DNA from: Limnochordia bacterium
GTDB taxonomy: Bacteria > Bacillota > Limnochordia > DTU080
DNA length: 64,000 nt
NCBI GenBank assembly: GCA_050951545.1
Contig: JBMNJG010000005.1
Location: forward strand, 1 to 64,000
Direction of reading: 5' to 3'
The position numbers and the translations under genes are program-made. Within the stretch, counting starts at the first letter, position 1. Each line of letters begins with the position of its first letter. Below the pieces are notes generated by a model. The model saw only the letters and a list, made by a program, of their open reading frames with translations. It was not told the DNA's origin and did not search any database. Shown in pieces: positions 6,231-39,226 of this stretch.

Positions 6231-7396
6231 GACCGCTCCCTCGCTATACCCGTCATGCTCCGCGCGATAGCCTCTCCCAGTGGAACAACCGTCTCCTGCT
6301 CGCGGGGCCAGGTATGTAGCGACGAGACATACCGCTGTTCACCCGTGTCACCATACATGTCCTCTAGGGCTCCTAGGTAAGAAGCCAAAGCCTGCACTGA
6401 CTCGGCCATGGGATGGGCATTCGCCCTCAAGCGCACTGGGCCGAGGAAGGCATTAGCAAGGCTGCGCGGCTGGGCTTGGCCCATCTCCAGAACTACACAC
6501 TCGGCGCGGGCGTAGGGTGCCGTAGCCCCCAGCTTGGCCCCGGGCGTCACCTGGGCGATGGCCTGAATGAGCAGACCCAGCAAATCTTGAGCGTCCTGCA
6601 GGTCCTGCTCCCGCCAGGCGTTCCGACCGCACCCGGTCAGGTTAGATACCAGCAACGGGATGTCCACGGCCACATAGCCGTAGAAGAGTCCCGCCCCCAA
6701 CTCCATATCGTTGGCATGAGCCGCGCCGGTCTCATCCCCAGCTAGATCATCTACAACAGTAAAAAAGTCCACCTCAGTATCCAAGGCATGCGTGGTGAAG
6801 GCATGGGCGACATGCACCGGAGCGTCGACTCTGGCCAGAATATCAGAGGTAACGAAGCGCCCAAACATAGCTCCCTCGAATCCCGCCACAGGATCCTGAA
6901 TGCCTGCCTGACGCAAGAGAACGGCGAAATTCTTCTTACCCTCCTTGATGCGCTCATCAAGGAAGGTCTTGGCCTCTTTCGCCTCACCTTGCCGCGCTGC
7001 TTCGTGGATGAGAGCCGTGAAATAGTCAGCCTCGGGGCGGCCAAACAAGACAGGCTGTTTCATGGCCAAAGTTTCTTTATCAAGAGCATCCTTGGAACCA
7101 GCAGCCGTGAGAATTCCACTGGCAAGATGAATAATGAGCTCCTGGGCTAGTTCGGGGTCGATCCCTTCCTGAACGAGCCGCGGCTTGAGCACCCGGCTAA
7201 AGAAGTAGCGTGTGCGCAAGCCCGAGGGAAGCTCAGTATGCTCGGTCATCCAAGTCCGCCAATGCCGCTTCTGACACTGGCTCGATACTCGCAACCGGGG
7301 GACACCACCAAACACGATTCGCTTGGCGAGCCCCGCGTCGTCCCGATTGAGCAGGCTGGCATGATAGCTGGTCAGGTAGTGAATCTGAAGAAACAT
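6227..7396 (-). CDS. cas7e: Cas7e/CasC
   Basis: FLQIHYL..SLLNRDDAG.AK..FGG..R.RVSSQ, MFGRF, DFFTVVDDL, PRSLANAF. Confidence 0.97.
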   Translation of the reverse strand: MFLQIHYLTSYHASLLNRDDAGLAKRIVFGGVPRLRVSSQCQKRHWRTWMTEHTELPSGLRTRYFFSRVLKPRLVQEGIDPELAQELIIHLASGILTAAGSKDALDKETLAMKQPVLFGRPEADYFTALIHEAARQGEAKEAKTFLDERIKEGKKNFAVLLRQAGIQDPVAGFEGAMFGRFVTSDILARVDAPVHVAHAFTTHALDTEVDFFTVVDDLAGDETGAAHANDMELGAGLFYGYVAVDIPLLVSNLTGCGRNAWREQDLQDAQDLLGLLIQAIAQVTPGAKLGATAPYARAECVVLEMGQAQPRSLANAFLGPVRLRANAHPMAESVQALASYLGALEDMYGDTGEQRYVSSLHTWPREQETVVPLGEAIARSMTGIARERS

Positions 7397-7407
7397 TCAA
7401 TATCACC

Positions 7408-7920
7408 TCACGCTGGTTTCTTTTCAATTGCGTAGTAGAAGTCCCTGGCGATACGGCGGTGGCACTCTTCGCGCCGATCTGCCTGACGCGCCAACAGAAG
7501 CTGTGCAGGCTGAACCCAGTTGCAGGAAACCGCCTTGGCAGCTAGAAACCGCGCCGCCCGCATCAGCAAGGTCCGCTGTGTATCCCCCTCCGCAGAAAGC
7601 AGCCTTTCCAGCCGCGCCTCACTATACCCTCCCTCTGCGAGGACCTTGCCGAAGGGTTGATCAGGGCGGTGGGCGTTGGGGCTCATCCGCGCCATACCAG
7701 CCACCAGCGTCATCCAATCCCGGCGTAGATCCTCTGTGGAGTCCCAGCCTTCCGGCAGATAGCGCAAGGCAAACCGGTAGAAGATGAGCGGAGGTGGCTG
7801 GTCAAGACTCATACGCCGCAGCGCAGCCCGCTCCCCAGTGGCGCACTGTTCGCCTTCTATCACTGCTGCCACTCTGCCGATCACCTGAGCGAGATTCGCT
7901 TCAGGAACCCGTGTGCTCAT
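7408..7920 (-). CDS. cse2: Cse2/CasB (Cas11)
   Basis: RAALRR, YSEARLERLL, IARDFY; position in operon. Confidence 0.9.
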   Translation of the reverse strand: MSTRVPEANLAQVIGRVAAVIEGEQCATGERAALRRMSLDQPPPLIFYRFALRYLPEGWDSTEDLRRDWMTLVAGMARMSPNAHRPDQPFGKVLAEGGYSEARLERLLSAEGDTQRTLLMRAARFLAAKAVSCNWVQPAQLLLARQADRREECHRRIARDFYYAIEKKPA

Positions 7921-9463
7921 GTCTCTCCTCCCTTAGAAATGGAAAGTTATTCTCACTGTACAGGGCCCCCCAGAAAACCCGATCCGACTGTACACGGGCA
8001 CGGTACCGACGCCCTTCACGCTCCGGCATGGCCTCTTGTGCTTCGCGCAAGACTCTGAGGGCGTGCTTGCTCAGTCGCTGAGCCCACTCCCGGAGTATTT
8101 GCCCCGAGTCGAAGGCCTCAGGCACCGACCACAGCCAGGGGAAGTATTCCACCGACCAGAGAGCCTCGAAGCGCCTAGCATAGCGCGTCCACCACGCTTG
8201 CGCGGAATCGCTGTCGTAGTTGATTGTGTCAGGCCCTCCCTCGAGAAATGAGAACACCGCCGGCCTTAGCACACCGCGCTGCATCGCTCCCGCGAAATCG
8301 ATGGCCGCCTTACTAAGGTCTGCCAAGGGCGCGCGCCGCGCTGATGATCCGAAGATCCGCAACCGCGCCGGAGCAGGAATGGGGATCAGCTCTTCATGGA
8401 ACCCCTCAGTGGTACCCTGACCGCGGATCATCACTGATAGGGAGAGCCAGACCGAGCCCTCCCAAGACGGCCCCGGTCTTTGCAGCGGGGTGAGCCGCAG
8501 ATCCTCAGAGAAGATCAAACGGCGCAGCATACCCGCGGTGACTCCGTGCGCTGGCATAGTCAGGGCCTTATCATCAGCCGCACTGAGATCCACGGGCACC
8601 CAGGCATCTCCGACGACACCCTTCAGATCCTGAGACGCAATTCGCATCGCCTCAGTGGGTACAACCTCAGCATAAATACGGTCATGGTCCTTCAGCCGCA
8701 CCCTACGGCAGATCTCTATGTAGAATGGATCGAGCGTCGCGAGGGGCAGACTAGTCTTTCCGTCCCACGGCTCCAGCCAGATCAGCACCAGCCCTTGGGC
8801 GTCATAGCCATAGGGCCCGGCAAGCACTTCTGCGCGATGGTCGAGCAAACGGGTGATTGCGTCGCACCACCGCCTGCCCGGCCGCGGGCTACGCACCAGT
8901 TCCACCACAGCCCGGTTACCGAAACCGCTATTCATTCGCGAAATGCCGTAGTTGCCGCGCCCTAGAAAACCACTCATAGTCTGCAAGCTTACCAAGGCAT
9001 AGACCCACTCGTCTTTCTGGGGGCGAGTCACCCGGGCCCATTTGACGTCATGGTTCTTCGCCGTCGGTAGAAGATCCAGCGCATCCGTAGCGTACTCCAA
9101 GGGTTCAATAGGTTTGAGGCGGGCCTGATCGGCGGCGGGCAGTGGCGGCTGCATGAAAGCAGGACGCGCTGCGTCCTCCACCACTAGGGTCCAAGCCTCA
9201 TCCCCGACTGGCTCAGCCAGCTCTCGTAATCCCGCCAGCCAATAGTCCTCGCTCTGGAGCGGATCACTGTCACCCCGACGGGCCAGTATTGCCCCCGCCA
9301 GGTAACAGAGAAACACGTGGAAGGCATCCTCTTGGTGCCGCTGGATCCCGACTAGGTGCTCCACCTCATCCCGACCCAGGGCGGTCATCAGCGCTGGTAG
9401 AGTCATCGTGACCAATCCCGACGGCGTCTGCGCCCGAAACACTGGATTGCTAAGCAGATTCAT
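7901..9463 (-). CDS. cse1: Cse1/CasA (Cas8e)
   Basis: MNLL start coupled to the cas3 stop (ATGA); PAFMQP, KNHDVK, GRGNYGISRMNSG. Confidence 0.9.
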   Translation of the reverse strand: MNLLSNPVFRAQTPSGLVTMTLPALMTALGRDEVEHLVGIQRHQEDAFHVFLCYLAGAILARRGDSDPLQSEDYWLAGLRELAEPVGDEAWTLVVEDAARPAFMQPPLPAADQARLKPIEPLEYATDALDLLPTAKNHDVKWARVTRPQKDEWVYALVSLQTMSGFLGRGNYGISRMNSGFGNRAVVELVRSPRPGRRWCDAITRLLDHRAEVLAGPYGYDAQGLVLIWLEPWDGKTSLPLATLDPFYIEICRRVRLKDHDRIYAEVVPTEAMRIASQDLKGVVGDAWVPVDLSAADDKALTMPAHGVTAGMLRRLIFSEDLRLTPLQRPGPSWEGSVWLSLSVMIRGQGTTEGFHEELIPIPAPARLRIFGSSARRAPLADLSKAAIDFAGAMQRGVLRPAVFSFLEGGPDTINYDSDSAQAWWTRYARRFEALWSVEYFPWLWSVPEAFDSGQILREWAQRLSKHALRVLREAQEAMPEREGRRYRARVQSDRVFWGALYSENNFPFLREERHEHTGS

Positions 9464-32879: not shown

Positions 32880-33560
32880 TCATATCTGTGCGAGATCCTT
32901 GAGTTCCTGGGGATCTAGAATCGTAAAAAGGCGCTGACCAGTCTGCTGGATGAGGCCCTCCTCTACCATCGCCCTCAGCCTTCTGCTCAAAGTCTCCGGT
33001 GTGGTTCCCAGGCGAACGGCCAGCTCTGCCCAAGAGATCGGCAGCTGTATGGTGGCTGCCCCCACAGCCTCCGCGTAGCGTAGCAGTGCGGCCGCCAAGC
33101 GCTGGCTTACATCACGTAGCCCCAGCTCTGTGATAAGCTGTTCTGCTTCGTACAGCCTCTGAGCCAACGCTTCAACCAAGGCCAAGCTCAGCTCTGAATG
33201 GGCTCGCAACAGGCCTTGCACTCCGGTGCGAGGCACCATACACACGCTCGTGTCTGAGGCAGCGACAAGATCTCCCTCGAGCGTGATCTGAGCAAAAAGA
33301 GCCATCTCTCCGAAGAACTCACCCGGCCCCAAGACTCTGATCACTTGCTCTCGTCCGCTGGCGGTGGTGCGAGTTAGCTTGAGTTCGCCCTCGGCCACGA
33401 TAACCAAGTGCTCAATAAGGGTACCGTGGGCCAACACAATCTCACCGCGCCTCAGACGCCTATGATGCATAGTATCATCTAACTCCTGCAAGCTCTCCGC
33501 GGGCAGACTGCGAAAGATAGGCACGGCAGCAGCGCAGGATTCCGCCATCGTCATGTGCAT
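32880..33560 (-). CDS. Crp/Fnr-family regulator (Flp-like)
   Basis: N-term SC...VPIF, GEFFGE, GTTPETLSR; ATG 33560 behind AGGAGG. Confidence 0.92.
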   Translation of the reverse strand: MHMTMAESCAAAVPIFRSLPAESLQELDDTMHHRRLRRGEIVLAHGTLIEHLVIVAEGELKLTRTTASGREQVIRVLGPGEFFGEMALFAQITLEGDLVAASDTSVCMVPRTGVQGLLRAHSELSLALVEALAQRLYEAEQLITELGLRDVSQRLAAALLRYAEAVGAATIQLPISWAELAVRLGTTPETLSRRLRAMVEEGLIQQTGQRLFTILDPQELKDLAQI

Positions 33561-33886
33561 GTGACCTCCTTGAGAATCGTGCAATGCTTTGCGGGCTCGG
33601 CGGCCCCCGATCTTCATCCAGCGATGGTGTCGGCGGCTGCTCCCAGTGTTCGCCGTCTGTGACAAGAGCCTCCTGCCAATGGCGTGCAGCACTGCGAACG
33701 CCAGTGCACGCGAAAAACGGCAAAATGGCGGTAAACTGCTGGTTATGTCACGGTTTATTCTGAAACACCCAGACATCAGTGTAGGCGTGTTTGTCTGGCC
33801 CTCCAGCGGCAGCAGATGGACCGCACTAACATTGGCTGCACGGCTGATGTGAGCCCTGACGAAACGAACAAGGTGACCAAGGGTGA

Positions 33887-34949
33887 CTACTCGTCTTGCT
33901 TTCTCTCAGATTGGCTGGCGGTTCCCCAGCCACGTTCATCTATTCTTTGCTGGTACTCACCGCATCTACACTCGAGATAGTTGATGAGCTTCCGGTTGAA
34001 GTCCTGACCGCGCCGGAATGGCAGCCGCCTGTGAATCTTGCGCTTGATGATCTTGCAGGACAGCTCGTGAGCCTGAATCACGATCAGCTTGATCTTCTTC
34101 TTAGCGCAGATCTGCTGTTTGGTCTGGTCACGGCATTGCTGCTTATGGACCTGCTCAGCCGAATTCCGCTCAGTGACGCGGTAGTGTTGCGCCCCATTGA
34201 ACTCCATGGCCGTATTGTGCAAGTAATAGAAGAGATCGACCTCCAGACGCTTGCCAGTTGCTGGGTTCCTCATGAAACCTGGGCGCATTCCGTCGTCGAA
34301 GTCAAGGCAATCGACAAGCGCCAAGAAGATAGCCTGCATGAGAGCCTCTCCGAGGTGCGTAGCGCGGTGGAGCTCATCCTGCACGTCTAGTATTTCTTTT
34401 ACATTTCGCTTATCAACCGGGTTGTGGAGAGTGAAGCGAATCGGTGCCCGCTTGTGCGCCTGCTCCATCTCCAGCCAACCATGCTTGGCCAACTGACGAG
34501 CCGCGTGTTTGATGGTTTGGGGGCTCAGACTCATCCGGCCGGCTAACTCAGCGTATGTGAACTGCCTTTTGCGAGGTGGATCCGTAGGTTTGGACAGCAG
34601 TACGGCATAAACCAATTTGGCCTGTGCATGGATTTCAGTAGCCATGACTAACTCGACAGGCACGGAGACCCTGTCCGGGGATGGCTTCTGTGCCGCGGTC
34701 TGGTCCAGAACCCCGCCTAGCCGGTGGAGCAAACCAGCCCTCGGTGGTTAGCTTGGCTGTCGCCCTGCGAACGGTAGGCCGGGACATACCCGTGCGCCGC
34801 CCCAGGCGGCTGGGCGAGAAAAGGAAGCTTTCCTCCAGCTGATCATCCATCGTTAAGGCCATCCAAACGATCTTCTCGCTGGCTTTTAGCTCGCGAGTCA
34901 GTAGCAGTGAGAGCGGCACGTTCACCTCATCTACATAGAGAGAGTACAA
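33887..34949 (-). CDS. Tandem winged-HTH + Vsr/DUF559-like PD-(D/E)XK nuclease, split by a 1-nt frameshift at 34731-34733
   Basis: Two homologous modules (VP..L....L....K.V...L / HTH / L...GW), then LEVDLFY..AMEFNGAQHY..RDQTKQQIC..IKLIVI. Deleting one base joins ORFs 34635-34967 and 33887-34732 into ~353 aa. Confidence 0.75.
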
Positions 34950-34967
34950 GGGCCTCACCTCACACAA

Positions 34968-34981
34968 CGATCATGTGTTCG
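34968..34981 (-). promoter_or_regulatory. Gram-positive LexA (Cheo) box-like site CGAAC-ACAT-GATCG
   Basis: One mismatch to CGAAC-N4-GTTCG, just upstream of the RBS; weaker second site at 34989-35002. Confidence 0.6.
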
Positions 34982-35106
34982 ATTGTCTCGATGCGATGTT
35001 CGGTACGTGAGGCCAGAATCCTTCCACAGCTTTCGCTGAAAACGCGTGCATTGCCGAGCTAAGACCCGGTGGCCACCGGGAGTCGATTGCATTTCGCCCT
35101 CGGATC

Positions 35107-36957
35107 ATCGGCTCAGTGGGAAAAAGGTATCACCACTGTTCGGTTATGTACTGCCCAGTAGCTCCAGAAGGGCCACCAAGGCGGGAAAGCGTGCTCTTGG
35201 GCGGGGAAATGAGCCCTTCAGGCGGTCAAAATGAGCCAAAACGGGCTTCGCGAAGGCCGCATCGCTGCACTCTTACCACGCACACTGGCCCCGGGGGCTA
35301 ATGGGGCGGCCCTCTTGCCATCGCGGCCGGATCCTTGGCCCCGACTCACGTACCAATCCGGGTGCATCTGTTCGACTACCGAGCCAGTCTCGCGAGCGTG
35401 TGCATGGTGTCCGTCCACCTTTTTCGAAATGCACCGACCGGGGCAACACCAGAGGGTCGGTCCGCAGAGGGATCCGAGCGAGTCCGCTGTGATCGCGCAC
35501 TGGGGAGCTGACCCCAATCGGCTGAGTGGGAAAAGGCTATCGCCACCGTCGGGTTATGTGCTGCGCGGCAGCCCCCAAGGGGCCGCCAGGGCGGGAAAGC
35601 GTGCTTTTGGGCGGGGAAATGAGCCCTTCGGGCGGTCAAAATGAGCAAAAAGGGCTTCGCGAAGGCCGCATCGCTGCACTTTTACCACATACATTGGGCC
35701 CGGGGGCTAATGAGGCGGCTCTTTTGCCATGGCGGTCGGATTCCTGGCTCCGACTCACGTACCAATCCGGGTGCATCTGTCCGACTACCGAGCGAGTCTC
35801 GCGAGGGCGTGCATGGTGCATGGTGTTCGCCCACCTTTTTCGAAATACACCGACCGGGTTAACACTGAAGGGTCGGTTCGCAGAGGGACCCGAGCGAGCC
35901 CGCTGTGATCGCGCACTGGGGAGCTGACCCCATCGACTGAGTGGGAAAAAGGTATCACCACTGTTCGGTTATGTACTGCCCAGTAGCTCCAGAAGGGCCA
36001 CCAAGGCGGGAAAGCGTGCTCTTCGGCGGGGAAATGAGCCCTTCAGGCGGTCAAAATGAGCAAAAAGGGCTTCGCGAAGGCCGCATCGCTGCACTTTTAC
36101 CACGTACATTGGCCCCGGGGGTTAATGGCGCGGCTCTCTTGCCATCACGGTCGGATTTTTGGCCCCGACTCACGTACCAATCCGGGTGCATCTGTCTGAC
36201 TGCAGGGCCTGTTTCGCGAGCGTGTCCATTGATCCGTCCATTCTGTTCGAATGCACCGACCGGGGCTACACCGAAGGGTCGGTGCGCAGAGGGATCCGAG
36301 CGAGCCCGCTGTGATCGCGCACTGGGGAGTTGACCCCATCGACTGAGTGGGAAAAAGGTATCACCACTGTTCGGTTATGTACTGCCCGGTAGCCCCAGAA
36401 GGGCCACCAGGGCAGGAAAGCGCGCTCTTCTGGGGGGAAAAGAGCCCTTCAGGCCGTCCAAACTAGCCAAAAGGGCTTCGCGAAGGCCGCATCGCTGCGC
36501 TTTTACCACGTACATTGGCCCCGGGGGCTAGTGAGGCGGCCCTTTTGCCATGGCGGTCGGATTCTTGGCCCCGACTCACGTACCAATCCGGGTGCATCTG
36601 TCCGACTACCGAGCCAGTCTCGCGAGCGTATGCATGGTGTCCGTCCATTCTGTCCGAATGCACCGACCGGGGCAACACCGAAGGGTCGGTCGGCAGAGGG
36701 ACCCGAGTGAGCCCGCCGTGATCGCGCACTGGGTAGCTGACCCCAATCGGCTGAGTGGAAAAAGGCGATCGACACTGTTCGGTTATGTACTGCCCGGCAG
36801 CCCCAGAAGGGCCACCAGGGCCGGAAAGGGTGCTCTTCGCGGGAAAAAGAGCCCTTCGGGCCGTCCAGATCGGCCAAAAGGGCTCCGCCAAGGCCGCATC
36901 GCTGCACTTTTGCCACCTACACTGGCGCCGGGGGTAAATGGGGCGGCTCTTGCGGCA
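35107..36957. repeat. Tandem array of ~4.5 copies of a ~410-bp hairpin-rich unit
   Basis: Anchor GTGG(G)AAAA at 35116, 35526, 35941, 36347, 36755 (periods 410, 415, 406, 408); shared blocks such as GAAGGCCGCATCGCTGC and CCGACTCACGTACCAATCCGGGTGCATCTGT. Confidence 0.97.
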
Positions 36958-37117
36958 TAGGGCACTGTGAGCCATCCGTGGCAGTATCTGGCCTGGAAGC
37001 ACTTGAGGCAGGATTTGACGCATCCGTTAGCCAATTGGTGCCCACGTAGATGCGATTACGTCACGCGGCGGGCGCCCTACAGAGCGCCCGAATTGAGTAC
37101 TGGAGAGATCACTACCA

Positions 37118-39226
37118 ATGGACGATGCACAAAGACTTCTTCTTAGTGGAAACGAAGCTGTAGCCCTCGCTGCTTCGCACTGTGGGGTAGCACTCGGTGC
37201 GGGATACCCAGGTACGCCCTCCACAGAGATTCTGGAGACCTTTTCGGCACTGGGCGGTCATGCCCAATGGGCACCGAACGAGAAAGTAGCTGCTGAGGTC
37301 GGGTTGGGTGCAGCCTTTGCCAACGCTCGCGTGTTGGTCACCATGAAGCATGTGGGCCTCAACGTTGCCGCCGATTGCTTGTTCACGATGGCCTACACTG
37401 GTGTATCAGGAGGCTACGTGCTAGTTAGCGCTGACGACCCTGGCATGGCCTCCAGCCAAAACGAACAAGACACCCGCCGCTATGCTGAAGCAGCGGGGGT
37501 ACCGTTGCTTGAACCATCTGACGCGCAAGAGGCCTATGACCTTCTATGGTTGGCGTATGATATTTCCGAACGCTGGCAGTTACCCGTCATCTACCGCATG
37601 ACCACGCGCGTGTGTCATACCAAGAGCCCGGTCACGCCTCGTGGGCAAACTCGCTTGCCCAATGAAACGCGTTTCGTCCGCCAGATTCAGGAACGCGTCA
37701 TGATCCCCGGGCATGCGCGCCCCGCGCACCGACGTCTTCGCCAGAAGCTCGACGAGCTCCAAGCCTGGAACGAAGCGGAAGGGCCCAACCAAGTGATAGA
37801 GGGTAACAAGACATTAGGTATCATCACCTCGGGCGTCTCATTCCACCACAGCAGAGAAGCTGCCCCCGCAGCGCGTCTTCTCAAACTCGGCATGCCCCAT
37901 CCTCTGCCCGTACAGACTATCCTGGATTTCATCGCCTCGGTAGACGACTGCTTGGTGGTAGAGGAAAACGACCCCTGGTTGGTCAATGCCATTCGGGCGG
38001 CTGGTGGACATGTCAGAGGAAAGAACGACGCCATCTTTCGCTTTGGCGAACTAGACGTAGACCGGGTGCAGCGGATTGTGGATAACGACATCTCTCCCGA
38101 GGCCACAGCCGCCAAAGGAAGAGCTCCCGAGCTCTGTCCCGGTTGCCCACACCGAGCCACTTTCAGTATCCTCAAGCGGCTGAACTGCATCGTAGCTGGC
38201 GACATAGGTTGCTACACCCTGGCCGCTCTGCCCCCGCTGCAAGCAATGGATACGATGATCGACATGGGGGCAGCCATAGGGGTCGGGCTTGGTCTGCGGC
38301 ACGTACTCCCCCCGGAGGAGGCCAAGCGTGTGGTCAGCGTGATCGGCGACAGCACGTTTGTGCACAGCGGCATCACGGGATTAGCAGAGATGCTATACAA
38401 TCCGCCACCCACGGGCCACGTAGTCATTATCCTGGACAATGAGACTACAGCCATGACTGGCCTGCAGGAGCATCCGGGTACAGGGCATCGTCTGGATGGC
38501 TCCTCCTCGACTCGCCTCTCATTTGAGAAGCTGGCCGTGGCCATGGGTGTTACGAACGTGCATGTTTTGAGTCCCGTGCGGGAGGCAGAAGCATTCGAAG
38601 CGGCAGTAACCGAGGCCCTCGCCTCGGAAGCCTTGACGCTTATCGTCGCCCGCCAGCCGTGCATTTTAGCCAGCAAGAAACGGGCCCGCGCAAAGCAGCC
38701 AGAGGAAGCGCGCGAACTCGAAGCCAGCTGTGCGCCTCTGGTTTGCGCCCCGCAGGCTTCCGTAATCAACGTGCGCTTCGCCGGACTGGGCGGCATGGGC
38801 GTGGTGACTGCTTCCGATATCTTCGCCGACGTGGCCTTTTGCGCTGGTTACGATGTCAAGAAGGCAGATGTACATGGCATGAGCCAAAGAGGCGGCTCTG
38901 TCTCCAGCGACGTCCGTTTCGGATCAGCGGTCCACAGCCCCATGATCCCCTCAGGCCGCTGTGACATGCTAGTGGTCATGTGCGAAGACCAAGTGGAGGT
39001 GCATGCCTCGCAGCTGCGAGATGGTGGTACACTGATCAGCCCACAGGCCATCGATCTCTCTCAGCTGAAAAACAAGAAGGCACTCAATGTAGCACTGTTG
39101 GGGGTACTGAGCACATATCTGGACTTCCAGACTGCAGACTGGCTGCAAGTGTTGCGCAAGCGATTCCCCGAAAGGCTCTATGAGGCAAACCAAGAAGCTT
39201 TCCTTCTCGGAAGAGGGGGCAGATGA
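37118..39226 (+). CDS. iorA: Indolepyruvate ferredoxin oxidoreductase, alpha-beta fusion
   Basis: GNEA, GYPGTPSTE, NEKVA, MKHVGLNVA, SSQNEQD, LCPGCPH, GDIGC, GDSTF; C-term GLGGMG, HGMSQRGGSV. Confidence 0.92.
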   Translation: MDDAQRLLLSGNEAVALAASHCGVALGAGYPGTPSTEILETFSALGGHAQWAPNEKVAAEVGLGAAFANARVLVTMKHVGLNVAADCLFTMAYTGVSGGYVLVSADDPGMASSQNEQDTRRYAEAAGVPLLEPSDAQEAYDLLWLAYDISERWQLPVIYRMTTRVCHTKSPVTPRGQTRLPNETRFVRQIQERVMIPGHARPAHRRLRQKLDELQAWNEAEGPNQVIEGNKTLGIITSGVSFHHSREAAPAARLLKLGMPHPLPVQTILDFIASVDDCLVVEENDPWLVNAIRAAGGHVRGKNDAIFRFGELDVDRVQRIVDNDISPEATAAKGRAPELCPGCPHRATFSILKRLNCIVAGDIGCYTLAALPPLQAMDTMIDMGAAIGVGLGLRHVLPPEEAKRVVSVIGDSTFVHSGITGLAEMLYNPPPTGHVVIILDNETTAMTGLQEHPGTGHRLDGSSSTRLSFEKLAVAMGVTNVHVLSPVREAEAFEAAVTEALASEALTLIVARQPCILASKKRARAKQPEEARELEASCAPLVCAPQASVINVRFAGLGGMGVVTASDIFADVAFCAGYDVKKADVHGMSQRGGSVSSDVRFGSAVHSPMIPSGRCDMLVVMCEDQVEVHASQLRDGGTLISPQAIDLSQLKNKKALNVALLGVLSTYLDFQTADWLQVLRKRFPERLYEANQEAFLLGRGGR

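Follow-up and report, generated by a model that had tools for sequence, protein, structure and literature searches.

A decayed insertion-sequence-like element with a tandem-winged-helix, Vsr-type nuclease gene and an array of 407-bp repeats in a Limnochordia genome

Nuclease gene and repeat array at the locus

We analysed a stretch of 64,000 nucleotides (the window; contig JBMNJG010000005.1 of assembly GCA_050951545.1, positions 1 to 64,000) from a Limnochordia metagenome-assembled genome (MAG; G000, 3.64 Mb in 16 contigs, 93.9% complete), in which a gene for a protein with two winged helix-turn-helix (wHTH) modules and a nuclease domain lies beside an array of long tandem repeats. Gene and array belong to a mobile element with defined ends, 9-bp target duplications and empty sites in related genomes. 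On balance, we lean towards reading the window copy as a decayed copy of an insertion sequence (IS)-like transposon for which its own SOS-controlled Vsr-type nuclease is the probable mobilising enzyme and in which the array represents multiplied subterminal DNA.

The gene is on the minus strand, where overlapping open reading frames (ORFs) at 34967..34635 (110 aa) and 34732..33887 (281 aa) are one gene split by a frameshift. Sister copies have a single open frame of ~353–356 aa, and the window copy therefore carries a 1-nt insertion near 34704; contigs derived from other copies have one base fewer at 34704. The N-terminal piece encodes the first winged helix and is out of frame with the C-terminal piece, which encodes the second winged helix followed by the Vsr-like nuclease (E-x-D ... 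EFNGxQHY ... RDxxK). Directly upstream of the first possible start codon, a candidate LexA box of the Cheo type with one mismatch (CGAACACATGATCG on the gene strand) occupies 34968..34981. It is followed by a leader that connects gene and array and is kept in sister copies (34982..35105). Within the leader is a perfect 14-bp palindrome (CCGGTGGCCACCGG, 35066-35079; 0 of 100 shuffles gave a match), which shows small changes among sister copies and could be an operator for the element's own protein.

The array starts 139 bp from the gene start, rather than the ~160 bp given in the initial annotation of this locus, and gene and array read opposite ways. Tandem Repeats Finder (TRF) placed the array at 35106-36951 with a period of 406, 4.5 copies and 86% matches, and found no other array there; a repeat search gave spacings of 406–415 bp between units. 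Four full units of ~407 bp (35107-35514, 35516-35930, 35932-36336 and 36338-36743; 35106..36744 on the plus strand) are followed by a partial fifth (36745..36951, plus strand; unit positions 1-208), in which the array is truncated and which holds the conserved motif GCATCG...TTTTGCC at 36896-36914. Neither an integrase nor a DDE or cas gene is found inside the module, and on this point, as on the tandem array itself, the initial annotation was correct.

Dispersed copies, ends and target duplications

A BLAST search of the host genome with one unit returned 84 matches in 25 loci, which are spread over 11 of the 16 contigs and total 27.4 kb. At 15 of the 25 loci the full gene is present at equal distance and orientation, with 94–98% nucleotide identity over 1.26–1.40 kb. 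Thirteen of these 15 gene copies have an intact frame (~353–356 codons; G000:C4:285551-286609 is an example), while the window copy and C5:130839 are frameshifted. Among the ten repeat loci that lack the full gene, gene fragments or the leader or terminus of the element are found at C2:185229, C5:366237, C6:159496, C12:189814 and C14:481, and the others are interrupted by an IS21-like insertion or a contig end. The repeat was not seen apart from the element in this genome. Gene and repeats thus spread jointly as a selfish unit, as had been supposed at the outset: besides the 15 loci with the full gene, at least five of the others hold remnants of the element. The derivatives present include gene-less and internally deleted copies. 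In contigs of two RNA runs (X16 and X18), the left-end module described below is joined straight to the gene interior (window 34540); this is an internal-deletion junction as at G000:C14:234-360, which indicates a deletion derivative in those samples too.

Copies of this element type, which we call subfamily S1, have a common order. The left terminus (GGGTGCACACG...) belongs to a ~206-bp end module and is followed by the single gene, which reads towards the left end; next come the LexA-type box, a ~140-bp leader with the palindrome, 1.4–5.9 units of the ~407-bp repeat, a diverged partial unit and the right terminus (...TTTTTTGCGTGGCCCC). On the array side of complete copies, the partial unit extends to ~position 173 and gives way to a diverged ~48-nt terminus (...CCGCAGTTTTTTGCGTGGCCCC), beyond which the DNA is unique. 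On the gene side, the ~206-bp module ends in ...GATTTCACGTGTGCACCC and lies ~80 bp past the stop codon, or farther away where optional modules are present; it has no similarity to the array unit. The nuclease gene is the sole conserved ORF between the element ends, and the array always adjoins the right terminus. Read inwards, the termini are imperfect inverted repeats, with identity at 19 of 32 positions for the commonest ends as aligned by eye.

Target duplications were assessed in the seven copies with both ends. The 9 bp immediately outside the ends agree at 9, 9, 9, 9, 8, 4 and 4 of 9 positions, so that a 9-bp duplication spanning both gene and array is present at five of the seven copies (four at 9/9, one at 8/9). 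Of 42 control pairings of mismatched left and right ends, none exceeded 6/9 and none showed a duplication. The C3 copy reaches 9/9, by eye, only if its atypical left end is set 10 nt farther out.

We then compared three insertions with two genomes of the same genus, G001 and G002 (95% and 91% complete, respectively). In both genomes and at all three sites the flanks are adjacent and the element is missing. The gap between flanks is 3531 bp at the window copy, compared with 150 bp in G001 and 152 bp in G002; 4293 bp at C5:129029-133098, compared with 308 and 351 bp; and 4217 bp at C4:114374-118428, compared with 165 and 448 bp. The protein has no match in either G001 or G002. A single copy of the duplicated 9-mer was not found in the empty sites, where intergenic DNA is too diverged; at the window site the relatives are ~75–80% identical, which resolves the insertion to a gap and not to a base. 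The organism is represented in metagenomes from digesters, bioreactors and landfills. In an independent landfill metagenome (DNA), word depth is ~22 in the flanks, 299–483 in the gene and up to ~1800 in the array, and contigs enter the window copy from both sides with 0 mismatches. Neither the copy numbers nor the window insertion can therefore be put down to faulty assembly.

The gene is under purifying selection, with dN 0.008, dS 0.049 and dN/dS 0.17 for the 78 pairs formed by the 13 intact copies. A search with terminal 27-mers, allowing up to 6 mismatches, matched mostly elements of this gene family, besides 4 weak matches. The IS1634-, IS4- and IS21-like elements of the genome have ends unlike those of S1, and for its ISLre2-like element no ends were found.

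Relative to these copies, the window copy is without the canonical ~206-bp left-end module and without the canonical right terminus, as its array breaks off at unit position 208. What is left on the gene-3′ side is a remnant at 33702..33886, in which homology to sister copies ends at ~33724 and a region repeated genome-wide runs from 33723. The remnant includes a degenerate variant left terminus (CCAGTGCACGCG...GGCGGTAAAC, ~33702-33737), and similar variant sites lie at the equivalent position in sister copies. With both termini lost and the gene frameshifted, the window copy can neither move nor make the protein: it is decayed and dead.

On its left side the element has a modular or nested build. 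In four S1 copies the 3′ end of the gene and the left-end module are separated by an additional module of ~300 bp, which contains a long perfect hairpin (GATGCATCGGTGGCC...GGCCACCGATGCA) (C5:129240-129540, C4:114580-114880, C3:131060-131360 and C12:189119-189415). At the equivalent place in ~7 copies, that of the window included, there is an alternative ~130-bp module ending in a second left-terminus-like sequence. Conventional elements also occur within or next to S1. An IS21-family element (IstA/IstB; G000:C10:61403-63856) lies inside an S1 array, pieces of which flank it at C10:60331-61402 and 63857-64047, and further IS21-family stretches are located at C14:1050-2151 and 6610-7970. An IS4-like element (486-aa DDE_Tnp_1; ends CAGGACTTCCGCAAG) is present at C11:1514-3230, C7:658339-660051 and, as a third copy, C16:36607-38320. 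Two of the three adjoin an S1 terminus, one after the right terminus and one after a variant left end, which may reflect a target preference for S1 ends or chance.

The encoded protein, its relatives and the LexA-type box

In Pfam searches the window protein matched wHTH families only, with HTH_36 and others each matching twice; there were also weak matches to DnaD_N and RP-C. No nuclease family was listed for it at E <= 10, and there was no DDE, DEDD, HUH, serine, tyrosine or Cas1 domain, no match to Y1_Tnp and no RuvC or HNH. The Pfam domains of 106 relatives are again wHTH, together with PF10881 (DUF2726) in 11 of them (best E 4.2e-5), and contain none of these transposase-type domains; PF04480 (DUF559) and PF03852 (Vsr) are not among the 25 commonest Pfam families listed for the 106.

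Structure prediction was more informative. An AlphaFold (AF2) model from the 106-sequence alignment (pLDDT 92.6, pTM 0.86) replaced an earlier one from 6 sequences, the C-terminal half of which had a pLDDT of 62. In structural alignments of the model, the segment 196-310 aligns with Vsr (1cw0_A; Z 8.2, rmsd 2.9, 103 aligned), the catalytic domain of I-Bth0305I (3r3p_B; Z 8.1, rmsd 2.9, 93/98 aligned) and 3hrl_A (Z 7.7). For residues 3-177 the match is to the two winged helices of the Pi initiator in complex with iteron DNA (2nra_C; Z 8.6, rmsd 4.0, 165 aligned), and other initiator or primosome winged helices (4pta_D and 5wtn_A) are among the matches as well. Z values of ~8 are middling, and for winged helices such matches are common; a Foldseek search of the PDB with the whole model returned nothing at E <= 1e-3. 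All three nuclease structures fall in the group 'VSR, DUF559, DUF2726' of the PD-(D/E)XK superfamily, as listed in Table 1 of PMC3424549.

Among the 106 family members, K277 is invariant, and conservation is 90% or more at D238, E249, G252, Q254, H255, R273 and D274. E236, D238, H255 and D274 occur in the same acidic/His order as in I-Bth0305I and Vsr. For these two enzymes PMC3239194 gives the active-site set E, D, N, H, D. The catalytic Asp, His and Asp are D51, H69 and D97 in Vsr and D196, H213 and D222 in I-Bth0305I. The family residues appear to resemble a Vsr-type active site in order and spacing, in a mapping inferred from the sequences and not superposed. As judged from the model, the protein is a Pi-initiator-like tandem wHTH fused to a Vsr-type PD-(D/E)XK nuclease, the identity of the nuclease being assigned by fold only. 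The two wHTH modules and the C-terminal Vsr-like nuclease proposed initially are thus both upheld, the nuclease on the strength of its fold and with no Pfam nuclease match.

A word-indexed search for further members returned 3 clusters, which correspond to S1–S3 of this genome. An exhaustive profile search of 1.84 billion representatives returned 8522 at E <= 1e-3, 1175 at 1e-10 and 234 at 1e-30, and the members are mostly full length at 320–360 aa. With 234 clusters at E <= 1e-30, and with its Atlas clusters named 'hypothetical protein', the family is sizeable yet wholly unannotated.

Three further subfamilies, S2–S4, are present in the same genome at 45–54% amino acid identity, each multicopy and with open frames. 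S2 has 4 copies (54% identity; C7:258046-260605, C8:1294-4129, C9:76262-78831 and C13:19960-22338), S3 has 7–8 (45–50% identity; C5:215715-217563, C5:322280-324097, C4:95226-97131 and 4 more) and S4 has 2 (C2:68758-69954 and C9:55786-56835). Left-terminus-like sequences are found in S2 and S4 and right-terminus-like sequences in S2, while target duplications in S2 and S3 were not clear by eye. At all seven S3 loci an array of 93–104-bp units, repeated 2.1–4.6 times, lies ~300 bp downstream of the gene, and the left end of S3 opens with the same ~45 nt as each S3 unit. In S2, one copy has a 262-bp unit repeated 2.8 times (TRF) before its right-terminus-like end and the other copies have repeated downstream segments; S4 has no array. 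The noncoding DNA differs among the four subfamilies, and the nuclease gene alone is retained in all of them.

Outside this genome, a search of 40 relatives gave matches in 13 genomes, several of which are multicopy (18, 13 and 6 matches). A wider locus search, with a profile from a 6-sequence alignment, of contigs representing one genome per species yielded 69 loci in Limnochordia, Symbiobacteriaceae, Thermaerobacter and other Bacillota MAGs, several per genome, and three weak partial matches in Promethearchaeota. Paralogs in other genomes are old, with 65–83% nucleotide identity and homology largely limited to the gene. The initial annotation had staked its proposal on repeats accompanying the homologs, and here the outcome is mixed. 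A tandem array with a period of at least 60 is found within 1 kb of the gene at only 9 of 68 loci in other genomes, and most homologs are thus without one; on the other hand, array density is 7.2 per 100 kb beside homologs and 0.96 elsewhere in the same loci (~7-fold enrichment, binomial p 5e-4, among kin that are not independent), and in the host genome the repeat never stands alone. The clearest adjacent arrays outside this genome are those of two Fermentithermobacillaceae MAGs (L116 and L119), in which 84-bp units repeated 5.2–5.7 times (or 168-bp units repeated 2.7–2.9 times) lie 300–550 bp downstream of shorter relatives of the gene.

The box upstream of the gene was compared with that of the host regulator. 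The lexA promoter of the host has a perfect CGAAC-N4-GTTCG box (CGAACTTTTGTTCG) as well as near-perfect copies, and genome-wide there are 4 perfect boxes and 134 with at most one mismatch. A box with at most one mismatch is located just upstream of the gene in 16 of the 17 S1–S4 copies tested, at positions -14, -17, -38 and -32. In relatives, 10 of 20 homologs have a box within 250 bp upstream, and these make up 10 of the 16 boxes present in 163 kb; in a wider set, a box is present at 7 of 32 full-length loci. Its retention across subfamilies whose upstream DNA cannot be aligned argues for function, though kin are not independent. The initial label 'SOS-boxed' thus holds as regards the box. 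From these patterns the nuclease gene appears to be under LexA/SOS control, and such control would be conserved over diverged subfamilies of a selfish gene. A scan for promoters and terminators gave nothing above shuffles.

Nature of the array and of the mobilising activity

The array units are noncoding: any given frame is open in at most 2 of 54 units, length differences are non-multiples of 3, and there is no clear 3-periodicity. Mean identity is 86.5% between units of different arrays and 89% within arrays, the nearest neighbour of a unit is in another array in 37 of 54 cases, and units are more diverged than either the gene or the left-end module. The best-conserved stretch, unit positions 101–200, holds the motif GCATCGC-N-CTTTTACC, which is located where the last unit turns into the terminus and is common to the 94-bp units and the left end of S3. 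A relaxed form of the pattern has 106 matches in the genome, of which 88 are within the repeats of S1 or S3 and about another 10 are at the margins of those repeats or in relics; GCATCG...TYTTRCC is absent from S2 and S4 and was not found beside homologs in relatives (0 of 19 loci). Rather than a separate target or RNA gene, the array is a subterminal component inside the element. We favour the view that it consists of multimerised binding or nicking sites, or arose as a by-product of recurrent cycles of nicking and repair at the conserved motif.

The initial annotation had compared the locus with REP-associated tyrosine transposases (RAYTs), HUH Y1 enzymes with short palindromic REPs on either side and hundreds more REPs dispersed elsewhere. 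Both systems combine a single selfish gene with repeated noncoding DNA on which it may act. The analogy does not hold further, as the 407-bp units occur only inside the element, as an internal array with short inverted termini and 9-bp duplications outside it, and not as dispersed targets; they are not palindromic hairpins, and the protein has no Y1_Tnp match.

If the element is mobilised by the protein it encodes, the two Pi-initiator-like winged helices would provide binding to the element and the Vsr-type active site would cut DNA, and LexA would repress the gene until DNA damage occurs. The array would then be multiplied subterminal DNA with one conserved candidate site for binding or nicking per unit, and the number of units could be altered by unequal recombination or repair. 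We infer that the protein mobilises the element because no examined IS shares its ends, selection on the gene is purifying, every subfamily has retained this gene and no other, and the gene-less versions look like deletion derivatives.

Several points weigh against mobilisation by the protein itself. We know of no PD-(D/E)XK or Vsr-type nuclease that carries out strand transfer; a 9-bp duplication requires staggered target cuts and joining, and either an undescribed chemistry or host repair must therefore be assumed. With a MAG that is 93.9% complete, an unlinked transposase could be missed. The inverted termini are weak, those of C5:129029-133098, which has a 1-nt deletion, agreeing at 13 of 30 positions ungapped, a level reached by 877 of 20000 shuffles. 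One of the seven copies with both ends, that in C2, has no duplication. The gene cassette is flipped relative to the ends, the gene reading away from the left end in S2 and towards it in S1. In other genomes, ends and duplications were not definable, with best values of 5–8/9 over 289 offsets that are at chance level and fuzzy boundaries in G009, and the shortage of arrays beside homologs there means that the array is not essential to the family. Lastly, contigs from 4 runs contain no excision or circle junction and no joint across the element, although contigs cannot prove absence.

In behaviour the element is closest to a classical IS. Like one, it is found as near-identical copies at unrelated sites, with short, if weakly matching, inverted termini, 9-bp duplications and a single gene, together with deletion derivatives, empty sites in relatives and a patchy distribution; target duplications of 9 bp are made by elements of the IS4/IS10/IS50 or IS1 types. 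It differs in having no known transposase class, in its internal array of 407-bp units (0.6–2.4 kb) and in its putative LexA-type box. To our knowledge, established bacterial transposons rely on few enzyme classes (DDE/RNase H-like, HUH, serine, tyrosine and Cas1), and TnsA is the only established PD-(D/E)XK nuclease of transposition. TnsA cuts the 5′ ends only, and joining needs the DDE protein TnsB. In PMC3424549, TnsA of Tn7 is named as a transposase. The S1 protein would share with TnsA a restriction-endonuclease fold put to use in transposition, but this element has no TnsB-like gene and the TnsA family PF08722 is unmatched.

It is thus a tentative proposal, one to which we give somewhat less than even weight, that the element represents a new class of prokaryotic transposon whose sole protein and transposase is the tandem-wHTH, Vsr-type nuclease, switched by SOS, generating 9-bp duplications and using the units as binding or nicking sites. 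Were the protein to move the element, it would imply either a new transposition chemistry or a new way of recruiting host repair. The element also furnishes a bacterial case of long, satellite-like tandem arrays seeded and carried by a mobile element. The intact copies make the mobilisation question testable in Escherichia coli.

The alternative that survives best, though we consider it unlikely, is that S1 is a non-autonomous carrier. A conventional transposase, perhaps encoded in the unassembled 6%, would act in trans, and the wHTH–Vsr gene would be a passenger of homing, addiction or defence type, or a regulator. Target duplications of fixed length are a signature of conventional transposases, and those of S1 fit this; the genome has IS4-like, IS1634-like, IS21, ISLre2, Tn5-like or IS66-like fragments; the cassette stands in either orientation relative to the ends (S1 versus S2), as a passenger might; and homologs in other genomes lack recognisable ends. 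However, no IS examined in the genome has related ends, and four subfamilies with different noncoding DNA have all retained this one gene. The dN/dS of 0.17 among near-identical copies fits selection for a function that acts in cis during spread, and gene-less versions are rarer than gene-bearing ones and look derived from them by deletion.

A homing cassette is improbable. Here the nuclease would cut pre-existing arrays or the motif, the gene would be copied in by double-strand-break repair, and the arrays would be landing pads. The idea draws on the catalytic domain, which is closest to Vsr and the homing endonuclease I-Bth0305I, and on the existence of repeat loci without the gene (10 of 25). 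Homing, however, leaves no target duplication, yet five of seven copies have one that spans gene and array, and relatives lack gene and array together at three of three sites. Of the gene-less loci, at least five retain pieces of the gene, the leader or a terminus and others have been interrupted by IS21 or a contig end, as expected of relics and not of virgin targets. The EDxHD/Vsr-like homing endonucleases (I-Bth0305I, 3r3p; Vsr, 1cw0) are nonetheless the closest described proteins, with the same catalytic fold, what appears to be the same order of acidic and His residues and, as here, a selfish multicopy gene with an N-terminal DNA-binding region ahead of the nuclease. I-Bth0305I, as described in PMC3239194, resides in a group I intron, has a single cognate allele and NUMOD-type modules, and makes no target duplication. 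The S1 protein has two winged helices in place of NUMOD modules, and its element has ends of its own, 9-bp duplications, 15 copies at unrelated sites and empty sites that lack the whole element.

We regard as very improbable the reading, already raised in the initial annotation, that each unit is a structured RNA bound by the nuclease as guide or scaffold. In an alifold analysis of 40 units, 97.7% of cells are paired and 7 of 84 pairs show double changes, compared with a mean of 3.8 after shuffling (7 or more in 2 of 500 shuffles), and many one-sided changes are from G-C to G-U. This structure, however, was derived from the same alignment, its covariation term is only -2.85 kcal/mol, and the minus strand does about as well as the plus strand (double changes at 9 of 121 and 12 of 123 pairs, respectively). 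Minimum free energies give z values of +1.60 and +0.71 for the two strands, so that the unit folds no better than shuffled sequence and the term 'structured repeats' is not supported. At E <= 1, a search of Rfam over 33000-38000 returned nothing besides a 35-nt chance match. In two metatranscriptome libraries from different studies (X16 and X18), contigs account for 448, 170 and 285 nt of the gene body with 0–1 mismatches but for a single 100-nt piece of the array, even though array DNA exceeds gene DNA several-fold. Since contigs cannot prove absence and DNA carry-over is possible, these observations hint only weakly at transcription of the gene and at a lack of abundant array RNA. Units of 94 and ~262 bp in sister subfamilies, with only a motif of ~19 bp in common, likewise argue against a conserved RNA. 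Unlike OMEGA systems (IscB/TnpB with omega-RNA), the element has no RuvC or HNH domain, no Rfam match and no excess structure.

We give equally little credence to an integrated mini-replicon, in which the tandem winged helices would be the initiator and the array its iterons, with an excised element replicating and the nuclease serving excision and integration: the two consecutive winged helices in the arrangement of iteron initiators (Pi of R6K, RepA/RepE), the weak DnaD_N and RP-C matches and the direct repeats beside the gene fit it, but iterons are 17–22 bp (about 20 bp) long and not 407 bp, GC is 0.59–0.65 across the array with no AT-rich unwinding region or origin features, the winged helices are fused to a nuclease, winged-helix matches at this Z are common, all copies are chromosomal and mobile with target duplications, and the contigs contain no circular junction.

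No description of such an element was found in the literature, in agreement with the initial statement that no named system has this layout. The operons on either side of the module are unrelated to it and are as first annotated: one encodes a P-type ATPase, an HMA protein and a Crp/Fnr regulator, the other a POR/TPP oxidoreductase and an AMP-binding ligase. Antisense to the nuclease gene, a 164-aa ORF (window 33896-34390, plus strand) is open in the C4 copy as well (L004:2625-3119), and is probably an artefact of GC-rich antisense sequence.

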